From UHGV virus genome UHGV-1579991: a stretch of 64,000 nt of DNA; one strand, written 5' to 3'. Below the pieces are notes generated by a model that worked only from the letters and a program-made list of their open reading frames with translations, did not search any database and was not told the origin of the DNA. Positions within the stretch are counted from its first letter, which is position 1. The number at the start of each line of letters is the position of its first letter. This document shows, in pieces, positions 5,634-43,504 of the stretch. The stretch comes from a virus. Position numbers and translations under genes: made by a program.

Positions 5634-5888
5634 TCAGATTTTGATATGTCGTAGCAAAATTTTATGCAAATTCAACAATGATTGCGCTGCATATGCTGGA
5701 TTTGGTTGAAGCTCTTTGCAGTTGTCGCATTTCAATGACTGCTCAGTTATTTGAGCATCTGTGTCAATGTTAATTGCAGTTTGACAAACTATGCATTGCC
5801 ATTTAAGCGTATGCGTATGTAAGTTGTCTACGAACAATGTAGAGCCAAACTTATCTTGCCAGTCTTCTGCGCATTTTGGATGAAACAT
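5634..5888 (-). CDS. hypothetical zinc-ribbon-like protein
   Basis: 84 aa ORF with paired Cys motifs (CAEDW...CIVCQ...CDNCK). Confidence 0.4.
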   Translation of the reverse strand: MFHPKCAEDWQDKFGSTLFVDNLHTHTLKWQCIVCQTAINIDTDAQITEQSLKCDNCKELQPNPAYAAQSLLNLHKILLRHIKI

Positions 5889-5892
5889 ATTG

Positions 5893-6900
5893 TTATGCGT
5901 TGTGAGCCCAGTTCAGCCAAACGTCATCTATTGACTGTGTAGTGTATTCACAATCATACAAGAAATTTACAAGAGCATCATAATTGCGTCTGCCCCACAA
6001 TTTGTGCTTCAAACTGCCGATTTCTTCGTCTTTCTTGTAATTGTTGTAGATTCGTTCAAGCATTGCTGAAGAGCCTGCTTTTGTGTCATATTCTGCCTCA
6101 AACAAACAGCCACAACTTGCTTTCTTTACAATTATGCGGTCATACATTGACACTACTGCTCTCAAAATGCTTTTTGACTGCAATCGTAACACATCAAGTT
6201 TATTGCATTGAGACTCCCATTTTTTGTACAATGTGTTGAATGATGGATTGTCAAGCAGCTTGTCTGCAATTGCGTATGCAAACGACATTGCATGCCAATC
6301 ATCTGTTCTGAAGTCCTCTGTGTTATGCTTATTGTAATATGCGCCAGTCGGTGCACAACCAATAAATGCTTCAAGTTGTCCAGCGTCATTTCGCAATATA
6401 CGCAATGAATGCTTATTAAAGAATGACACCCATATGCGATTATGCGCAACTATCACAGAATACTTGTTTTCACATTTTGCTGCAGCATCGCTTATTGAAC
6501 GACAATCAATCTGCTTGCAAATTGATGTTATGAATGCTGCAAACTCTTCATGCTTCTTGAGCTTGTTTTGCGTGACGTCATATAGATGCAACAAACCATT
6601 GACAACAGAGTCAAGCTTAGCTTCATCAGACTCAAAACTACCAAATGTTTCAAAGACTCGCATCTCTTTGTCAACAAGCATTTCTACGATTGCGTCAATA
6701 TCTTTGCTAAGCAGTGTTTTGGGTTCTAACGTTGCATGCATAAATGTCAATTGAAGCAGCGCATTCGCAGTTTGTTCAGACAGCACGTCATTTGCGCGCG
6801 CAATGTCGATTGCAGCTTTAAGTTCTGTTCGTTTGACTTCAAAATATCGTTGCAGCTGTAGTTTAAGTTGCTGAGAATAGACATTATTTGGTCTGAGCAT
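5893..6900 (-). CDS. hypothetical protein
   Basis: 335 aa minus-strand ORF; no motif recognised. Confidence 0.5.
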   Translation of the reverse strand: MLRPNNVYSQQLKLQLQRYFEVKRTELKAAIDIARANDVLSEQTANALLQLTFMHATLEPKTLLSKDIDAIVEMLVDKEMRVFETFGSFESDEAKLDSVVNGLLHLYDVTQNKLKKHEEFAAFITSICKQIDCRSISDAAAKCENKYSVIVAHNRIWVSFFNKHSLRILRNDAGQLEAFIGCAPTGAYYNKHNTEDFRTDDWHAMSFAYAIADKLLDNPSFNTLYKKWESQCNKLDVLRLQSKSILRAVVSMYDRIIVKKASCGCLFEAEYDTKAGSSAMLERIYNNYKKDEEIGSLKHKLWGRRNYDALVNFLYDCEYTTQSIDDVWLNWAHNA

Positions 6901-25900: not shown

Positions 25901-26437
25901 TCATTTGTAGTGTTCAGTTATGTATGCAGAGCATAGCAAAACAACTGATACACAAATGACAATGTATGTTGGCGTAATCAGTGTCACATTGAATAACAAT
26001 GCAGTCAATGCGCATACTGTTACTGATATGAGTGTTGAAATGAATGCAGCATATGCACTAAACTTGCTTTTTAACAAACGTTCGATGATATATGTTGTCG
26101 CAACAGACAGTAAGACTACACATGCAAATAACAACAGCCAAGTTGAGTTTGACGTTGTCGGCTCTTCAATAAACTGCAATGTTGCTGATGGCACTTCAAT
26201 ATTGTTTGATGCTTGTAATGTGCCACTTGCAGCATCTGCGTACATCACAGTTAAGTAGTGTCGTTGAATTTCTGCTGCGTCTACTTTATAGATTCTATGC
26301 CATGCAACATCTGATATGATGTATGTTGCAGCCATAAATGCAGCAATGCATAGCATATAAGAGCCAAACTTTGCAATCGGTTTCATGCAAATATATTTTT
26401 GTTTGTATATGTACATAAAAGAGCAAGTTCTCCACAT
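25901..26437 (-). CDS. hypothetical multi-pass membrane protein
   Basis: 178 aa with several hydrophobic stretches. Confidence 0.45.
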   Translation of the reverse strand: MWRTCSFMYIYKQKYICMKPIAKFGSYMLCIAAFMAATYIISDVAWHRIYKVDAAEIQRHYLTVMYADAASGTLQASNNIEVPSATLQFIEEPTTSNSTWLLLFACVVLLSVATTYIIERLLKSKFSAYAAFISTLISVTVCALTALLFNVTLITPTYIVICVSVVLLCSAYITEHYK

Positions 26438-26764
26438 TGAGAACTTGCTCAGCTGACCTGTTACCAGGTGAAAGCGTGGTGCAGCACCTTGTGCTGCAAT
26501 GGCTATGCTGCCATCGCCATAACGGGCTGAGCATTGCCCAGCATCATTACACGACCAGCTGCATTAAGCGTACGCTTTGCTTTGTTGAAAAATTTGCCAG
26601 TTATCTGGTATCTGCACATCTATTCAAGCGACCTACTATGCAATCAAATGCCTGTCGAGCCCAATGTTTGAGCAGTTGTTTGTCAGATGCTCAGCTGACT
26701 GCAGTCTTTCTGAGTGTATCAAGTTCAGCGATTCTGCATCTTTGCTAAATGGCAATGGTTCAGG

Positions 26765-26800
26765 TGGACTCGCCGAGAATCGAACTCGGGTCTTACATAG
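26765..26800 (-). other. tRNA-like fragment (T-arm plus acceptor 3' strand only)
   Basis: Minus-strand read CCGAG-TTCGATT-CTCGG-CGAGTCC-A is a canonical T-arm plus acceptor 3' strand, but I could not find a matching 5' acceptor strand, D-arm or anticodon arm before the next tRNA. Confidence 0.3.
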
Positions 26801-26845
26801 CGCATCCTTGACTTGGTCCTGTAAACAGGGTTGTCAACATGCATT

Positions 26846-26916
26846 GCAATACGACAGGACTCGAACCTGCGACCTCGGATTGGACGTCCGCGCTCTTACC
26901 GCTGAGCTACGTATTC
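26846..26916 (-). tRNA. tRNA, anticodon uncertain (possibly Gly-UCC)
   Basis: Minus strand: acceptor GAATACG/CGTATTG (G1-G72 mismatch), D-arm GCTC-AGCGGTAA-GAGC, T-arm GCAGG-TTCGAGT-CCTGT; anticodon stem irregular (4 bp), loop CGTCCAA. Confidence 0.5.
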
Positions 26917-27009
26917 TTATCAATTGACTGCACTGCAATGCAATCAATCGTGCCAATGATATTTGACACGCATAATTGCAGTTATGCGTAACAATTCAAA
27001 TGTCATTTG

Positions 27010-27082
27010 AGCCAACTGCAGGAATCGAACCTGTAACCTGCTGAGTACAAATCAGCTGCTCTACCAATTGAGCTAAGTTGGC
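27010..27082 (-). tRNA. tRNA-Thr (anticodon UGU)
   Basis: Minus strand: acceptor GCCAACT/AGTTGGC, D-arm GCTC-AATTGGTA-GAGC, anticodon stem GCTGA/TCAGC with loop TTTGTAC, T-loop TTCGATT. Confidence 0.75.
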
Positions 27083-27164
27083 ATAAAGTCGTTGGGCCAT
27101 TGCAACCCAAACCTATCATCTTTGCCTAACCAAAGATGCAAGCGCTCTCTTACACCACGACTTG

Positions 27165-27235
27165 TAGCCGAACTTGGAGTCGAACCAAGCTTTCGAGAAT
27201 GAAAATCTCGCGTCCTAACCGATAGACGAAACGGC
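27165..27235 (-). tRNA. tRNA-Glu (anticodon UUC), non-canonical acceptor stem
   Basis: Minus strand: D-arm GTCT-ATCGGTTA-GGAC, anticodon stem CGAGA/TCTCG loop TTTTCAT, T-arm CTTGG-TTCGACT-CCAAG; acceptor GGCCGTT/TTCGGCT has two U-U mismatches at its base. Confidence 0.5.
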
Positions 27236-27419
27236 CAAGAGCAGTTCAAGTCTGCAGCATTGAACTGCGGAAACAATGCCTGTACGGGCAACCAATTGTG
27301 CAGATACAGCGACATTGCAAAATCACACCGAACCAAGTTTGTGGCTCTTCTGTCTCATAAAAACAAGTAATCATTACACTTGGCACCAATGATTTTGATG
27401 TAAAAATCGGTGTGTTACG

Positions 27420-27504
27420 CGGAGAGTAAGGGATTCGAACCCCTGGTACGTTGCCGTACAGTGGTTTTCAAGACCACCGCCATCGACCGCTCGGCCAACT
27501 CTCC
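27420..27504 (-). tRNA. tRNA-Ser (anticodon UGA), type II
   Basis: Minus strand: acceptor GGAGAGT/ACTCTCC, anticodon stem GTGGT/ACCAC loop CTTGAAA, 16-nt variable arm, T-arm AGGGG-TTCGAAT-CCCTT. Confidence 0.75.
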
Positions 27505-27697
27505 ATAAAACATTGCATAAGCATTCTTATCTCTTGATGAGGCCAAGTAGCTAATTTGGCAAGTTTGTTATATCTATCGTGACTGTTGCAGTTTGTTGTC
27601 ACTCAATACACAAAACTTTCGAACATTCATTGACAACACTGCAATATCGCTTTTTAAGCTCAGCCATCAATGTATTTATGCAATGTATAACAATTCG

Positions 27698-27779
27698 TAG
27701 CCAAACCGGGACTTGAACCCAGACTCCTAATGGAACAACATTTTGAGTGTTGCGTGTCTACCAATTCCACCATTTGGCC
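27698..27779 (-). tRNA. tRNA-Leu (anticodon CAA), type II
   Basis: Minus strand: acceptor GGCCAAA/TTTGGCT, anticodon stem CAACA/TGTTG loop CTCAAAA, 13-nt variable arm, T-arm CTGGG-TTCAAGT-CCCGG. Confidence 0.7.
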
Positions 27780-27876
27780 ATTTGCAAATGCAAGCTGTTT
27801 CACAACTGTTTGCATTTGCATTTGCATTGTTTAACACACTAAAATATGATTCATCTAATCAAAAACCAGAGAATTG

Positions 27877-27949
27877 TCGAGAATGTGCGATTTGAACGCC
27901 AATTATACGTCCCAAACGTATCGTGTTACCGGATTACACTACATTCTCG
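27877..27949 (-). tRNA. tRNA-Pro (anticodon UGG)
   Basis: Minus strand: acceptor CGAGAAT/ATTCTCG, anticodon stem ATACG/CGTAT loop TTTGGGA, T-loop TTCAAAT with a weak 3-bp T-stem. Confidence 0.6.
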
Positions 27950-27956
27950 TTAATTG

Positions 27957-28027
27957 TTGAACTGTCTGGACTCGAACCAGAAATATATCATCCAAAGTGA
28001 TATGTGTTACCATTACACCACAGCTCA
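27957..28027 (-). tRNA. tRNA-Gln (anticodon UUG)
   Basis: Minus strand: acceptor TGAGCTG/CAGTTCA (one G-U), D-arm GTG-TAATGGTAA-CAC, anticodon stem TATCA/TGATA loop CTTTGGA, T-arm TCTGG-TTCGAGT-CCAGA. Confidence 0.7.
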
Positions 28028-28540: not shown

Positions 28541-29038
28541 TCATTCGATGTTACCAGATAATATCCGAATGGCATCCAATGCATTTTCTCGTATCAAGCC
28601 AAACTTACCTATAACTTGAACAAAATGTTTGTCATTTTCAAATGTTGAGTCATCAAGAATGACATATTGTTTGATGTTATGTTTCTCAACAAGCGCAGGC
28701 ACTGCAGCAAATCTGTCATGAAAGCCCTCAGCATAAATTGATGGCAACAAATAGCCTGGCATATTGCGCTTAAGCCACATTATCTTGCAGTCATCAAGAA
28801 TAGCCCAACTGCTTATTAAGCATATTGCACCAACATCTGACATTTGACAAATGTATCTCAACCAGCCAACACAACGTTCATCGAACAATTGGCCAAACTC
28901 ATCTTTTGACTGCACATCCATGTTTGCACGATGCTTTGACATGTGCAACATATTGAGATTATCTTGGCTATTCAGAACACCATCAATGTCCAAGAATATC
29001 ACTTTGTCAGGCCAAATCACTTTGTTTGTTGTGTTCAT
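28541..29038 (-). CDS. HAD-superfamily hydrolase-like protein
   Basis: 165 aa; HAD motif I FLDIDGVLNS near the N-terminus and a C-terminal ILDDS acidic motif. Confidence 0.5.
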   Translation of the reverse strand: MNTTNKVIWPDKVIFLDIDGVLNSQDNLNMLHMSKHRANMDVQSKDEFGQLFDERCVGWLRYICQMSDVGAICLISSWAILDDCKIMWLKRNMPGYLLPSIYAEGFHDRFAAVPALVEKHNIKQYVILDDSTFENDKHFVQVIGKFGLIRENALDAIRILSGNIE

Positions 29039-39452: not shown

Positions 39453-42400
39453 TCAATTACATGCTGAATGTCCGCAGTTGGTGCATCGAACACAGCCGTC
39501 AAACTTGACCATGTCACCACCGCATTCAGGACACTTTGCATACATCTTTGAGCCATCTTGAATGTGTAGTTTCAATGCGCGACCAATTGCTTTGCAGAAT
39601 GTGCCAACAGATGCAAAGCTTTTTGCAGTTTGGTCGACAATTTCACCAAGGTCGATGCCATTGCGAAGCATCGTTGAGTACAGTCGAGTAATTGTTTGCT
39701 GCTCATCTGAACCAAGACGTTCTGAGATATTGTCATAGTGTTGCAAGAATGACAAATTATCACCAAGCTTGTAGTGCTTCTTATCAGTCTTTGTGATTGT
39801 CGTTTGTTCAATGCCTTGCAACTTGTCAAATTCGTCTTTGTCAAGTTCAAATGCAAAGATTTCATAGGGTCGACCATCATCACAACCTACAAGAATACAC
39901 CACTTACGCTTATACACTGATACACAATACACTGCAGCAGGCAATACAGGTTTTCGTTTTGAGCGATGACCAGACTGCAAGACATGCGACTTATCCTTAG
40001 ACTGCTTATCATCTTTTACGAGAACACCTGCACGTGAGCCATCTCGATAAATTGTGCAACCCTTGCAGCCAGATTTCCATGCAGTCAGATAAATTTCACG
40101 AACAAGCTCTTTTGTTGCAGAGTTTGGAATATTGACTGTTACAGAAATTGATGAGTCAATGTACTTTTGCAACGCGCCTTGCAGTTTAACCTTGCCAATC
40201 CAGTCAACATCTTCAGTAGTTGCCTTATAGTATGGTGATTGAACAAGCAATTCATCAATGACTGCTTGCGAAGCATTTGACAACCAAGCTTTGATACGAG
40301 ACATTTCTGCTTCTGACCATTCAATGCCAGTATCTTTGACAAGGGTGAATTTGTCATCACCAAGCTGCACTCGTTTGCAAATCCACTGCATCAATGGGTA
40401 GTGAACTACAGCGTATTCAATGAACTTGTCACCAGTAGTCTCATCAATGAAGTTGATGTCTGCTTCATTATCAACTGCAGTAGGCTTTCGACGACGTTTG
40501 TGCAGTGGCATAAAAACAGGTTCAATGCCAGAAGTTGTCTGAGTCATCAAAGCTGTGGTGCCAGTTGGCGCAATTGTTGTTGTGTTGATGTTTCGACGAC
40601 CAAATTGTTGATAAGTTGTGATGTGCTCATCATCAATCAGTTCAGATAACATACGCTGAATGAACTTTGACTGCACATCTGTGTCATAGTCGAATATTGC
40701 AAATGAGCCACGAATCTCTGCCAAGTCAATTGACGCTTCATAAGTCGCCTTTACAAGCCATTGTTGCATAGTGACTGCGAAGTCAATTGACTCTTGTGAA
40801 CCATAGCGCAAGCCAAGCATTGCCATTGCATCGCCAAGTGCAAGAAAGCCCATGCCATATCGACGAGTATTTGTCAATTTGTCATAGACTTTATGCCACA
40901 AGTCAAGCTCAGTTTTCTTAATGTCAAATGATTCTTTGTCTGATTCAACCTTTGCAATGATTCGTTGAACTGCTTCAATTTCAAGCTGCACAAGGTCATC
41001 CATGATGACTGCACAGTCATATGTATCTTTGTAGAATGCTTCAAAGTCAAATGATGCATCAGCAGTCCAAGGATTAAGCACATATGCAGTCAAATTGCGA
41101 TGTGATAAAATGCAGCTTGCATATGCTGCAAGAGGCTGTTCACCGCACTGCCTGTTGTTTACAAATACTTGCATATGTCTGTCATTTGTATCATTGACAG
41201 CGTCAAATGACCCTACAAAAAAGTTGTGATAATCATCTACAGTGCCATTATACACATCTTCTACACCATCAAGTTCAACAGTGTGTACCCTATGATTGTA
41301 GTAATCTGCAAACTGCTTAAACTTTCTGTATGACGCATGAATAGCAGCGTCAACATTGTTAGATTTGCATTCATTTGCAAATTCTTCATAATTTGGTCGT
41401 TTGCCAAGTTTTTGCTTTGCTGCAGTATATACAAGCACTTGTTCTTTAGACCATTTTGCTTGCTGAGCTGCGTGGCCGCATTCGGCAGAACAATATGCAA
41501 CTTCTCTATAAAACCAGTGCGCCCAAAATTCAGAGCCGCAATGTTCGCAAATACGTTTAACATACACTTGTTTGTCAACAAATTTAGTGTCATAGCCCAT
41601 ATTGCGAACTTTAATTGCTGTTGCTATGCATCTGCTATCAATGCCAACTAAATCAGGATATTTAACATTAGCGCGCGTTGCACAATGACTTAAAAATGCA
41701 TCAATAGAGCCAAATGTTTCTACTAATTTATTGTACCTGTAGCCAGACCATGCAACAGTATTATTGCCTGGCGCATAGCGCATATAGTATTCTAATTCTT
41801 TGCGACTAAGGCCTCTTCCAACTTTTGCAGTGCATTGCGTAACATAGTCTACAATTGATTGCACAGTTGTATCAATATCATATCTGCCATTACGTTCACC
41901 AGAAGTAGATGCACTCATTTTAGCAGAATACTGTGCAAAACGTTCTGCATTTGCTTTAATTTTGTATATTGGATTGTTAGTGCCTCTACGTTCAAGTGCA
42001 TGTAATGCATCATGCTCTTTTTTGCTTAGTACTTGTAAGTTATTTGGGTCATTGTTTAATGAATTGCCATCGATATGATGCACTACTGTGTGTGTAGCAT
42101 CAAACTGTTCAGCATGACAGTATTCTGCTATTAAACGATGCTCAAACTTATATACACCATTATTCAACACTGCATAATATGGTGCAGATTTGCTATTTGT
42201 TTGATAGCTAAGCACTTCATCAAATGAACATTGTTGTCTTGCAATAATTGCTAAGCTATCACCATGCTGTAATTGTCGTGCTTCTTTGTATGTGCCATCT
42301 GTTAACTTAAACTTGTGATTACCTGTGCAACGAATAACATCACCAGAATCAAGTGTAACTTTGTATATTTGCACATTTGAGCCTGTTTTGCGTGGATGCC

Positions 42401-43439
42401 GCATTTTGCGTACAACTACATTATTGTTGTCATCATAGCAATACACATTAACATCATCGCCAATATCTGCAAGTTCACGTATTGTCATTGTTTGTCTGCC
42501 ATCAGCAAGCATAACTTTAGTGCTGCCAACAATGCATGGATTTGTTGAGCGCTCTTCATACATTTTACCGTATGCTTTCGAGTTCGACTCTTCCATAATG
42601 CGGTCCCAAAAGAACACGCCGGGTTCTGCAGATGCCCATACATTGTCAACAATTTTGTCAAATAATGCTTTTGCATCTGATGTCTTATGCAGCTCTTGGC
42701 CATCAGAGCCACGCCAAATATGTTCAAACTGCTGTTCTGCAAGCACTGCACGCATAAATGCATCAGTAAGCTTGATGGAAATGTTTGCACCTGTGATTTT
42801 TGTCAAGTCTTTTTTTGCGTCAATGAACTTATCTGCATCAGGATGCTCAATTGACAATGACAACATCAATGCGCCACGCCTGCCATTTTGTGCAACTTCT
42901 TTTGTCGATGTTGAAAAGCGTTCCATAAATGACACGACACCAGACGTCGTAATAGCACTGTTATGTACTTCTACGCCTTCTGGGCGAATATGCGACAAAT
43001 CATGGCCAACACCACCACGACGTTTCATCAACTGAACTTGCTCTTCATCTGTTTTGAAGATGCCGCCATATGAATCTGCATCATTGCCTATTACATAGCA
43101 ATTTGACATTGATGTGTAACCGCCAAGACCGATACCAGCCATTGGAGAACCACCAAGTACAAATCGCTTAAATGGCTCAAGCAAATATGCAAGTCGCTCT
43201 TTTGACAATACACGTTTGCCTGTCTGTTCTTCAAATTGTGATTCTATACGGTCAAATTCATTGACCCAGCGCTCATGCATATCAGACAATGAGTGTTCAT
43301 ACAAATTGTCTTTGTCATGATGCAAGTATTTTGACATGCATATGTCAGCAGCCATTGAGTCGCCCGTAAATTCATGCGTCAGTGTAGTGTGCACTTCAGC
43401 ATATTCAGGCGACCCAATTTGAATGGGACGTTTTGTCAT
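39453..43439 (-). CDS. nrdJ: ribonucleotide reductase, class II (NrdJ)-like, intein-containing precursor
   Basis: Track ORF 39453..43499; likely start at ATG 43439 (MTKRPIQIG). Exteins reconstitute the RNR active-site motif NP-CGEQPL...AYASC; C-terminal Cys-rich zinc-ribbon-like tail. Class assignment is tentative. Confidence 0.7.
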   Translation of the reverse strand: MTKRPIQIGSPEYAEVHTTLTHEFTGDSMAADICMSKYLHHDKDNLYEHSLSDMHERWVNEFDRIESQFEEQTGKRVLSKERLAYLLEPFKRFVLGGSPMAGIGLGGYTSMSNCYVIGNDADSYGGIFKTDEEQVQLMKRRGGVGHDLSHIRPEGVEVHNSAITTSGVVSFMERFSTSTKEVAQNGRRGALMLSLSIEHPDADKFIDAKKDLTKITGANISIKLTDAFMRAVLAEQQFEHIWRGSDGQELHKTSDAKALFDKIVDNVWASAEPGVFFWDRIMEESNSKAYGKMYEERSTNPCIVGSTKVMLADGRQTMTIRELADIGDDVNVYCYDDNNNVVVRKMRHPRKTGSNVQIYKVTLDSGDVIRCTGNHKFKLTDGTYKEARQLQHGDSLAIIARQQCSFDEVLSYQTNSKSAPYYAVLNNGVYKFEHRLIAEYCHAEQFDATHTVVHHIDGNSLNNDPNNLQVLSKKEHDALHALERRGTNNPIYKIKANAERFAQYSAKMSASTSGERNGRYDIDTTVQSIVDYVTQCTAKVGRGLSRKELEYYMRYAPGNNTVAWSGYRYNKLVETFGSIDAFLSHCATRANVKYPDLVGIDSRCIATAIKVRNMGYDTKFVDKQVYVKRICEHCGSEFWAHWFYREVAYCSAECGHAAQQAKWSKEQVLVYTAAKQKLGKRPNYEEFANECKSNNVDAAIHASYRKFKQFADYYNHRVHTVELDGVEDVYNGTVDDYHNFFVGSFDAVNDTNDRHMQVFVNNRQCGEQPLAAYASCILSHRNLTAYVLNPWTADASFDFEAFYKDTYDCAVIMDDLVQLEIEAVQRIIAKVESDKESFDIKKTELDLWHKVYDKLTNTRRYGMGFLALGDAMAMLGLRYGSQESIDFAVTMQQWLVKATYEASIDLAEIRGSFAIFDYDTDVQSKFIQRMLSELIDDEHITTYQQFGRRNINTTTIAPTGTTALMTQTTSGIEPVFMPLHKRRRKPTAVDNEADINFIDETTGDKFIEYAVVHYPLMQWICKRVQLGDDKFTLVKDTGIEWSEAEMSRIKAWLSNASQAVIDELLVQSPYYKATTEDVDWIGKVKLQGALQKYIDSSISVTVNIPNSATKELVREIYLTAWKSGCKGCTIYRDGSRAGVLVKDDKQSKDKSHVLQSGHRSKRKPVLPAAVYCVSVYKRKWCILVGCDDGRPYEIFAFELDKDEFDKLQGIEQTTITKTDKKHYKLGDNLSFLQHYDNISERLGSDEQQTITRLYSTMLRNGIDLGEIVDQTAKSFASVGTFCKAIGRALKLHIQDGSKMYAKCPECGGDMVKFDGCVRCTNCGHSACN
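41148..42536 (-). mobile_element. intein (Hint domain plus HNH homing-endonuclease domain) inside the RNR gene
   Basis: In-frame 463-aa insertion from Cys at 42536 (CIVGSTKVMLADG) to ...VFVNNRQ at 41148, followed by the +1 Cys of CGEQPL. Contains HNH motif HHIDGNSLNNDPNNLQVLSKKEHDALH and intein block-F-like VYNGTVDDYHNFFVG. Confidence 0.75.
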
Positions 43440-43504
43440 TGTAACAGTGCATTTAAGTGTTTTAACAGTTTTATGTATAAATTGTACAACAATGGGCAAA
43501 ATTT

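Follow-up and report, generated by a model that had tools for sequence, protein, structure and literature searches.

RNA genes of the array

We analyzed 64,000 nucleotides (nt) of the virus genome UHGV-1579991, referred to here as a whole as the window, and focused on a minus-strand cluster that a sequence-only reading had described as seven transfer RNA (tRNA) genes, some with non-canonical stems, plus an orphan tRNA-like 3' half. RNA genes were called with ARAGORN on the whole window and with Rfam covariance models (tRNA gathering score, 29 bits). ARAGORN reports eight RNA genes in total, every one of them on the minus strand within 26412-28027, comprising seven tRNAs (26846-28027) and one permuted transfer-messenger RNA (tmRNA; 26412-26854), and the Rfam tRNA model RF00005 passes 7 of 7 tRNA genes (Table 1). 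Both methods thus call every gene of the proposed seven-gene array, and the oddities described for its members are borne out. CCA is encoded by none of the eight genes. It is very likely that the minus strand from 28027 to 26417 forms a single RNA operon made up of seven tRNA or tRNA-like genes, a gapless permuted tmRNA, and a strong intrinsic terminator.

The orphan half is the acceptor piece of this tmRNA, and its pairing partner, in trans, is the coding piece's 5' end. Its letters at 26792-26763 (GAC-CCGAG-UUCGAUU-CUCGG-CGAGUCC-A-CC) supply the T arm, the acceptor 3' strand, A73, and CC, and the partner strand GGGCUCG lies 103 nt downstream, which gives a circularly permuted gene order; the T arm and acceptor 3' strand had thus been read correctly at 26789-26766, but the 5' half that was thought to be missing is present. 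Together the two pieces form a 7-bp acceptor stem (G-C, G-C, G.U, C-G, U-A, C-G, G-C, then A73) that carries the alanine identity elements G3.U70 and discriminator A73, and their pairing rebuilds an alanine-type acceptor end (G1-C72, G2-C71, G3.U70, A73), the T arm, and a long P2 helix system. When 26845-26765 is cofolded with 26662-26596, the energy is -50.1 kcal/mol (z = -2.9 against shuffled coding-piece 5' segments). Besides the 7-bp acceptor stem and the T arm, the structure has two P2 helices, one of 9 bp between 26801-26793 and 26643-26635 and a bulged one of 8 bp, and an outer helix of 8 bp between 26843-26836 and 26620-26613. Ahead of the resume codon, where pseudoknot PK1 would be expected in a two-piece tmRNA, the cofold shows only the hairpin CCAG-AUAA-CUGG at 26608-26597.

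The merged permuted-tmRNA model of Rfam, RF04321, aligns 26503-26823, including every helix of the tRNA-like domain (E = 6.5e-4), and the ARAGORN call comes from a heuristic that is independent of Rfam. The alpha, beta, and cyano subtype models (RF01849, RF01850, and RF01851) have no match in the window at E values up to 10. The predicted tag ends in ...PVMAMAA followed by a stop; its exact start and its length of 31 codons are uncertain.

Table 1. RNA genes and structural elements of the array in the order of transcription (window coordinates).
Feature	Position	Strand	Description and support
tRNA-Gln(UUG)	27956-28027	-	Canonical, U1-A72; ARAGORN; Rfam 64.4 bits
tRNA-Pro(UGG)	27876-27949	-	Shortened T stem; ARAGORN; Rfam 49.9 bits
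tRNA-Leu(CAA)	27697-27779	-	Class II, canonical; ARAGORN; Rfam 54.2 bits
tRNA-Ser(UGA)	27419-27504	-	Class II, canonical; ARAGORN; Rfam 56.5 bits
tRNA-Glu(UUC)	27164-27236	-	G1.U72, U6.U67, U7.U66; ARAGORN; Rfam 46.4 bits
tRNA-Thr(UGU)	27009-27082	-	Near-canonical, A49.C65; ARAGORN; Rfam 67.7 bits
Gly(UCC)-like gene	26846-26916	-	Normal D and T arms, G1.G72, C73; ARAGORN; Rfam 44.1 bits
tmRNA acceptor piece	26763-26845	-	ARAGORN tmRNA*, RF04321 alignment, cofold, covariation
Acceptor piece, outer-helix strand	26843-26836	-	
Acceptor piece, hairpin	26829-26818	-	
Acceptor piece, P2 strands	26813-26793	-	
Acceptor piece, T arm	26789-26773	-	
Acceptor piece, acceptor 3' strand	26772-26766	-	
Acceptor piece, A73	26765	-	
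Acceptor piece, CC	26764-26763	-	
Intervening segment	26663-26762	-	100 nt; hairpin at ~26693-26669
tmRNA coding piece	26417-26662	-	ARAGORN, RF04321 alignment, cofold
Coding piece, acceptor 5' strand	26662-26656	-	GGGCUCG
Coding piece, D-loop analogue	26655-26644	-	
Coding piece, P2 strands	26643-26613	-	
Coding piece, tag frame	GGC 26598 to stop TAG 26505-26503	-	Encodes GKFFNKAKRTLNAAGRVMMLGNAQPVMAMAA
Coding piece, hairpin	26498-26480	-	
Coding piece, GNRA hairpin	26468-26457	-	
Intrinsic terminator	26450-26421	-	12-bp stem; U-run to 26417

Sister genomes and covariation

Two sister contigs from one IMG/VR sample, L002 and L003 (IMGVR_UViG_3300045988_152288 and, for L003, IMGVR_UViG_3300045988_149023; ~175 kb each), are 93 to 97% identical to the window. 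The tmRNA of L002 is the same as that of the window. In L003 the tRNA-like domain has been replaced in both of its halves, with differences at 48 of 86 acceptor-piece columns and 17 of 48 columns of the coding-piece 5' end; the intervening segment between the replaced patches differs at 14 of 100 columns and the downstream tag-coding region at 7 of 112. The acceptor strands are GGGGGUG/CACCUCC in L003 and GGGCUCG/CGAGUCC in the window, which amounts to three double compensatory changes with G3.U70 kept. The L003 pieces cofold into the same architecture at -50.5 kcal/mol, and mixed window/L003 pairs are weaker (-37.1 and -45.1 kcal/mol). Two double changes also preserve the hairpin of the intervening segment just before G1 (GAGCA/UGCUC versus GGACA/UGUCC), the sole substitution inside the tag frame is synonymous (AAU to AAC), and the loop of the GNRA hairpin changes from GUAA to GCAA. 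The L003 tmRNA scores 24.9 bits with RF04321. We rejected a candidate pairing of the two terminal hairpins with each other (26829-18 with 26468-57), because the complement is missing from L003 and each hairpin retains a tetraloop-type loop of its own.

For a wider comparison we aligned the T arms and acceptor stems of seven phage permuted tmRNAs. Pairing is found in 84 of 84 cells, a proportion that is inflated because the 5' strands were found partly by complementarity search, and 7 of the 12 pairs have changed on both sides; none of 500 shuffles reaches the real pairing, and no slid register comes close. G3.U70 is invariant in all seven. This alignment and the sister genomes both provide covariation support for the tRNA-like-domain helices.

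Two members of this wider group, on contigs L125 and L165 (IMGVR_UViG_3300030390_002309), surfaced from a search for relatives of the array's tRNA-Glu. Both tmRNAs are permuted, with the tags EHVEMAMAA and GEHVNMAMAA, so that the MAMAA-stop ending is common to them and the window gene, as is the context AUAAC(A/U)-GGC ahead of the resume codon. RF04321 is passed by both (53.3 and 58.8 bits, respectively), by Chryseobacterium phage MA9V-3 (64.7), by the crAss-like phage cr10_1 (49.6), and by Pelagibacter phage Mosig (93.6), and tmRNAs embedded among tRNAs are common in these phages. On L165 (5668-6033, minus strand) the intervening segment of the permuted tmRNA holds a complete tRNA-Glu(UUC) at 5855-5927, and ordinary tRNA processing would therefore be expected to excise it. 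Two other contigs, L006 (~94 kb) and L027 (~102 kb), bear standard-form tmRNAs along with ARAGORN "tRNA-???" calls that have 2-nt or 4-nt anticodons in 6-nt or 8-nt loops (L006 159-241; L027 4041-4128, 4673-4745, and 9673-9756), some of them adjoining the tmRNA.

Differences between the sister genomes extend to the tRNA genes, and RNA genes seem to be exchanged among them as cassettes. The Leu(CAA) gene is identical in both sister genomes. When L002 5425-5577 is compared with window positions 27876-28027, L002 has an unrelated, canonical Pro(UGG) gene (47% identity) in place of the Pro gene, and its Gln gene shares 81% identity with that of the window. The Ser(UGA) slot of L003 (5902-5984) is occupied by a different gene, missed by ARAGORN, which is tRNA-Sec-like according to Rfam (41.8 bits versus a gathering score of 47); its D stem has 6 bp, and its anticodon loop reads CUUGAAA.

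The tRNA genes

Clean cloverleaves had been described for five of the seven genes. Ser, Leu, and Gln are indeed canonical, but the T stem of Pro is shortened to three Watson-Crick pairs and one G.A, with one pair absent from the Rfam alignment, and Thr is near-canonical with a single A.C pair, A49.C65, in its T stem. We counted codon usage over the 30 long open reading frames (ORFs) of the window (14,706 codons). CAA makes up 65% of Gln codons, CCA 49% of Pro codons, TTG 31% of Leu codons, TCA 44% of Ser codons, GAA 72% of Glu codons, and ACA 50% of Thr codons; six of the tRNAs supply A-ending or UUG codons that the phage prefers. The Gly(UCC)-like gene does not match this pattern, GGA (5%) and GGG (4%) being the rarest Gly codons, together only 59 of the 14,706. 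Codon use is extreme overall; other rarely used codons are TCC (2%), ACC (5%), and CCC (5%). The 30 ORFs stop at TGA (15), TAA (14), and TAG (1); the tag frame of the tmRNA nevertheless stops at TAG.

The two U-U mismatches previously noticed in the acceptor stem of the tRNA-Glu are seen in the Rfam alignment as U6.U67 and U7.U66, in addition to a G1.U72 pair. All three recur in the tRNA-Glu of the crAss-like phage cr3_1, which is 84% identical; between the two genes, pair 5-68 and three pairs of the T stem have undergone double compensatory changes. Across 79 unique phage and 118 bacterial Glu-family genes, nearly all other members have Watson-Crick or G.U pairs at 6-67 and 7-66; one gene from a bacterial assembly (L266) has a lone U6.U67, and none of the 79 and 118 genes has the double U.U. 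Because the mismatches recur together with compensatory changes in other stems, the tRNA-Glu is probably a functional rare variant kept under selection and not a product of decay, and the earlier suggestion of functional but idiosyncratic phage tRNAs suits this gene well.

That suggestion fits the Gly-like gene poorly. The reported G1-G72 mismatch and the loop CGUCCAA are both present, and the Rfam alignment gives an anticodon stem of only 4 bp, G33, and discriminator C73; in the minimum-free-energy fold (z = -0.56) the anticodon stem is missing. Among 689 tRNAs, 4 have G33 (0.6%) and 98.4% have U33. The bacterial glycine identity set consists of G1-C72, C2-G71, G3-C70, and U73 together with C35 and C36. 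The gene has only C35 and C36 of this set, and its acceptor end reads G1.G72, A2-U71, A3-U70, C73. It thus lacks the 5-bp anticodon stem, the U33, and the paired 1-72 of a canonical elongator, although its D arm, its T arm, and acceptor pairs 2-7 are intact. None of its 71 columns varies in three genomes, versus 50 of 627 in the spacers (8%; P = 0.006). It ends at 26846, 3 nt before the outer helix of the tmRNA (26843), with no room for a promoter. Exact and relaxed searches with the pattern of its anticodon arm matched only the two near-identical IMG/VR contigs. Alternative registers, namely, a tRNA-His-like G-1:C73 and a Trp(CCA) loop, were tried and rejected because the pairing fails.

The Rfam scan of the array recovered no glutamine riboswitch and no other Rfam family, and the spacers (80-190 nt) contain no tRNA remnants detectable by Rfam. 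A sigma-70 promoter scan was uninformative (9 sites versus 7.2 expected), the tool not covering Bacteroidota promoters. Long hairpins with arms of 14-17 nt that are 81-88% complementary occur in the spacers at 27783-27826, 27241-27268, and 26963-26994, with the tRNA genes for Leu and Glu starting 4-5 nt downstream of two of them, and a GCAAAT hexamer is repeated at ~27826-27843.

Maturation and alternative explanations

We infer the following route for maturation of the two-piece tmRNA and for its function in ribosome rescue. The array would be transcribed as one unit, RNase P would cut at the 5' end of each tRNA and at G26662, and a 3' endonuclease would cleave after each discriminator, including A26765 of the tmRNA. 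The CCA-adding enzyme would finish the 3' ends of the tRNAs and of the tmRNA, whose end would have to be completed in this way since it reads ACCU rather than ACCA. The intervening segment would be discarded, and 3' processing of the Gly-like tRNA would free the 5' end of the acceptor piece. Host alanyl-tRNA synthetase (AlaRS) could then charge the two-piece RNA through G3.U70, and host SmpB could deliver it to stalled ribosomes during infection, leading to rescue; the tag ending ...VMAMAA would be appended and would mark the released peptides for degradation.

Several observations weigh against a functional two-piece tmRNA. The RF04321 score of 30.7 bits is below the gathering score of 47. 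The tag frame is unusually long, an open frame of 31 codons is not improbable by chance, and a single synonymous change backs it. The L003 tmRNA has a 6-nt T loop and is missed by ARAGORN, so that some tmRNA alleles may be impaired. SmpB was not found in the window by tblastn with the E. coli protein, which is a weak test; function of the tmRNA would in that case depend on compatibility with host SmpB. The low model score, along with the lack of a cloverleaf partner immediately upstream, could also be taken to mean that 26765-26800 is the decayed remnant of an eighth tRNA that lost its 5' half, much as the sequence-only reading had considered decaying copies. We regard this as extremely improbable; a perfectly complementary 5' strand that creates G3.U70 lies 103 nt downstream and is succeeded by the D-loop analogue and P2 helices, by a tag frame that closes with AA-stop, and finally by a terminator, and the covariation of the two halves between sister genomes refutes the remnant in practice. 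A different function, that of a decoy or inhibitor titrating host SmpB or AlaRS, has been proposed for the tmRNA of mycobacteriophage DS6A, which consists of the tRNA-like domain alone; a molecule of this kind is reported to inhibit tmRNA (PMC4131195). The failure to find SmpB and the swapping of tRNA-like domains between sister genomes around a fixed coding part would both suit a decoy, but the window gene keeps a complete coding piece, with a conserved resume-codon context, an open MAMAA-stop tag frame that ends like the tags of other phage tmRNAs, and a downstream hairpin, and we consider this explanation very unlikely.

For the Gly-like gene we tentatively favor the role of a tRNA-shaped processing handle that does not decode glycine, on the grounds of its conservation, its intact arms, and its 3-nt adjacency to the tmRNA without room for a promoter. 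The handle is argued from that adjacency and from conservation in three genomes that are closely related, and the permuted tmRNAs of L125, L165, and MA9V-3, which have no tRNA immediately upstream, speak against it. That it is a recently inactivated pseudogene without function would explain why a gene whose codons the phage has no demand for is damaged independently at several points of its anticodon arm and acceptor terminus. This is nevertheless doubtful, given the absence of any variable column while the spacers vary (conservation that is too high for drift), the intactness of the parts recognized by RNase P and RNase Z (acceptor pairs 2-7, T arm, and D arm), and an anticodon stem that lost one nucleotide per strand and so remained a helix. 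That the gene is a working if unusual glycine tRNA for GGA and GGG appears unlikely. The ARAGORN call, a score above the Rfam tRNA threshold, D and T arms of Gly type, invariance in three genomes, and a UCC anticodon that suits a series reading A-ending or UUG codons all agree with it, but G33, an anticodon stem absent from the predicted fold, the replacement of the glycine identity elements at the acceptor end, and the rarity of GGA and GGG in the ORFs do not.

Phage identity and probable host

The window belongs to a large phage with T4-like core genes; it encodes a gp23-type capsid protein and a T4-type terminase, a clamp loader, two subunits of topoisomerase II, an NAD-dependent ligase, and a ribonucleotide reductase. 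The large subunit of the latter (39453-43499, minus strand) is interrupted by an intein with an HNH endonuclease domain. The capsid protein matches only 31 phage records; its cultured relatives infect Chryseobacterium, Tenacibaculum, Flavobacterium, and the host of phage PAU, which has been reclassified as Sphingobacterium (PMC3738902), and the rest are Lak phages associated with Prevotella and uncultured phages from metagenomes. In the Bacteroidales, tRNA-Glu genes as a rule have G1.U72 (74 genes), and the tRNA-Glu of the window has the same pair. From the hosts of the capsid relatives (26-37% protein identity) and this pair, the host of the phage is likely a member of the Bacteroidota.

In the closest cultured relative, Chryseobacterium phage MA9V-1, neither the first 50 kb nor the syntenic topoisomerase region contains a tRNA or tmRNA. 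A single metagenome scan with the large subunit of topoisomerase II found relatives of at most 42% identity, none with an array, and a scan of a genome collection with the capsid protein gave no match. Searches of the ORFs neighboring the array against Pfam and PHROGs yielded no annotation except for one HAD_SAK_2 domain protein ("Swiss Army Knife RNA repair proteins"; Pfam E = 2e-14), encoded by the second ORF upstream of the array (28541-29038, minus strand), which may be linked to tRNA repair. Across window positions 1-64000, GATC occurs 2 times versus 167 expected and CTAG 2 times versus 63 expected, a scarcity that looks like strong restriction-site avoidance.

Among the 29,415 Bacteroidota genomes of the current tmRNA database, 24,380 standard tmRNAs stand against 48 permuted ones (PMC11915505 Supplementary Table 2). 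Since Bacteroidota tmRNAs are almost always standard, the form of the phage gene differs from that of its probable host, which raises the question of where phage permuted tmRNAs originate. The 48 sporadic permuted genes in Bacteroidota assemblies, like the scattered counts that the same table gives for other phyla and for archaeal metagenome-assembled genomes, could be phage contigs binned with hosts, and our findings suggest that those 48 may be phage DNA. It is conceivable, although we think it unlikely on balance, that Bacteroidota phages possess one or more permuted-tmRNA lineages of their own that arose from standard phage tmRNAs, independently of the alpha, beta, and cyano types, and that mature by tRNA punctuation, with a dedicated non-decoding "Gly" gene as the 5' processing handle in this phage, a whole tRNA-Glu within the intervening segment in L165, and exchange of the two tRNA-like-domain halves as a co-adapted pair between near-identical genomes.

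These results remove an apparent anomaly. When a phage genome shows a tRNA 3' half that lacks its 5' half, a permuted tmRNA should be looked for before the element is labeled a pseudogene. A divergent two-piece tmRNA that scores below the Rfam threshold is added to a clade whose cultured relatives infect Bacteroidota. The array also offers two test cases, namely, a tRNA-Glu that tolerates two conserved U.U pairs and a conserved tRNA-shaped RNA that probably does not decode.

Comparison with known systems

Two-piece tmRNAs of phages have been reported by Buchholz et al. 2022 (PMC9004378), who counted 53, mostly marine, among 133 unique tmRNAs of phages. Two phages from that work, Melnitz of OM43 and Mosig of Pelagibacter, resemble the window phage in having a permuted ssrA gene with G3.U70, called by ARAGORN as tmRNA*, in a large lytic phage with T4-type genes. 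The Mosig gene, however, scores far higher with RF04321, also passes the alpha_tmRNA model, and encodes a full CCA, whereas the window tmRNA has 30.7 bits, no subtype match, ACCU at its end, and no glutamine riboswitch. The tag frame of the window gene, which stands at the end of a tRNA operon, has 31 codons as opposed to 9, and the likely host of the window phage belongs to another phylum.

Closer in this last respect are Chryseobacterium phage MA9V-3 (PV245944) and crAss-like cr10_1 (MT774382), both Bacteroidota phages in which the permuted form is annotated. Like the window gene, theirs have a partial CCA tail (AC, then A or G), an intervening segment (57-96 nt), and UUUGAC or UUCGAC in the D-loop analogue, but their tags are shorter and different, and no tRNA lies directly upstream. 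Permuted genes of Bacteroidota phages give only partial matches to the beta model, below threshold. The tRNA-like domains of MA9V-3 and cr10_1 are 44-45% identical to that of the window, below the 53-58% found for several standard-form phage tmRNAs; over all permuted genes compared, the range is 41-45%. This pattern is a weak hint of an independent permutation. Searches by blastn of the whole array and of the tmRNA alone against 50,697 phage records returned only generic tRNA or T-arm matches.

The two-piece tmRNA of Caulobacter and other Alphaproteobacteria (Keiler, Shapiro and Williams 2000) shares with the window gene the order of acceptor piece, intervening segment, and coding piece; tRNA-processing enzymes mature its transcript, as we propose for the window, and base pairing joins the two RNAs. 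The window gene differs from that type in having no alpha-model match and no encoded CCA and in being phage borne.

Phage tRNA arrays such as the T4 cluster are polycistronic, match codons preferred by the phage, and are processed by host RNase P. The window array differs from the T4 cluster in that it ends in a tmRNA and includes a tRNA-like member that is unlikely to decode. Since phage two-piece tmRNAs are published and annotated, and ARAGORN finds this one directly, the window gene is a divergent new tmRNA of a known type. Less ordinary are the probable mismatch between phage and host in the form of the tmRNA gene, the swapping of the two tRNA-like-domain halves as a co-adapted pair from one sister genome to another, and the position of the tmRNA at the end of a tRNA operon, behind a tRNA-like gene that probably does not decode.

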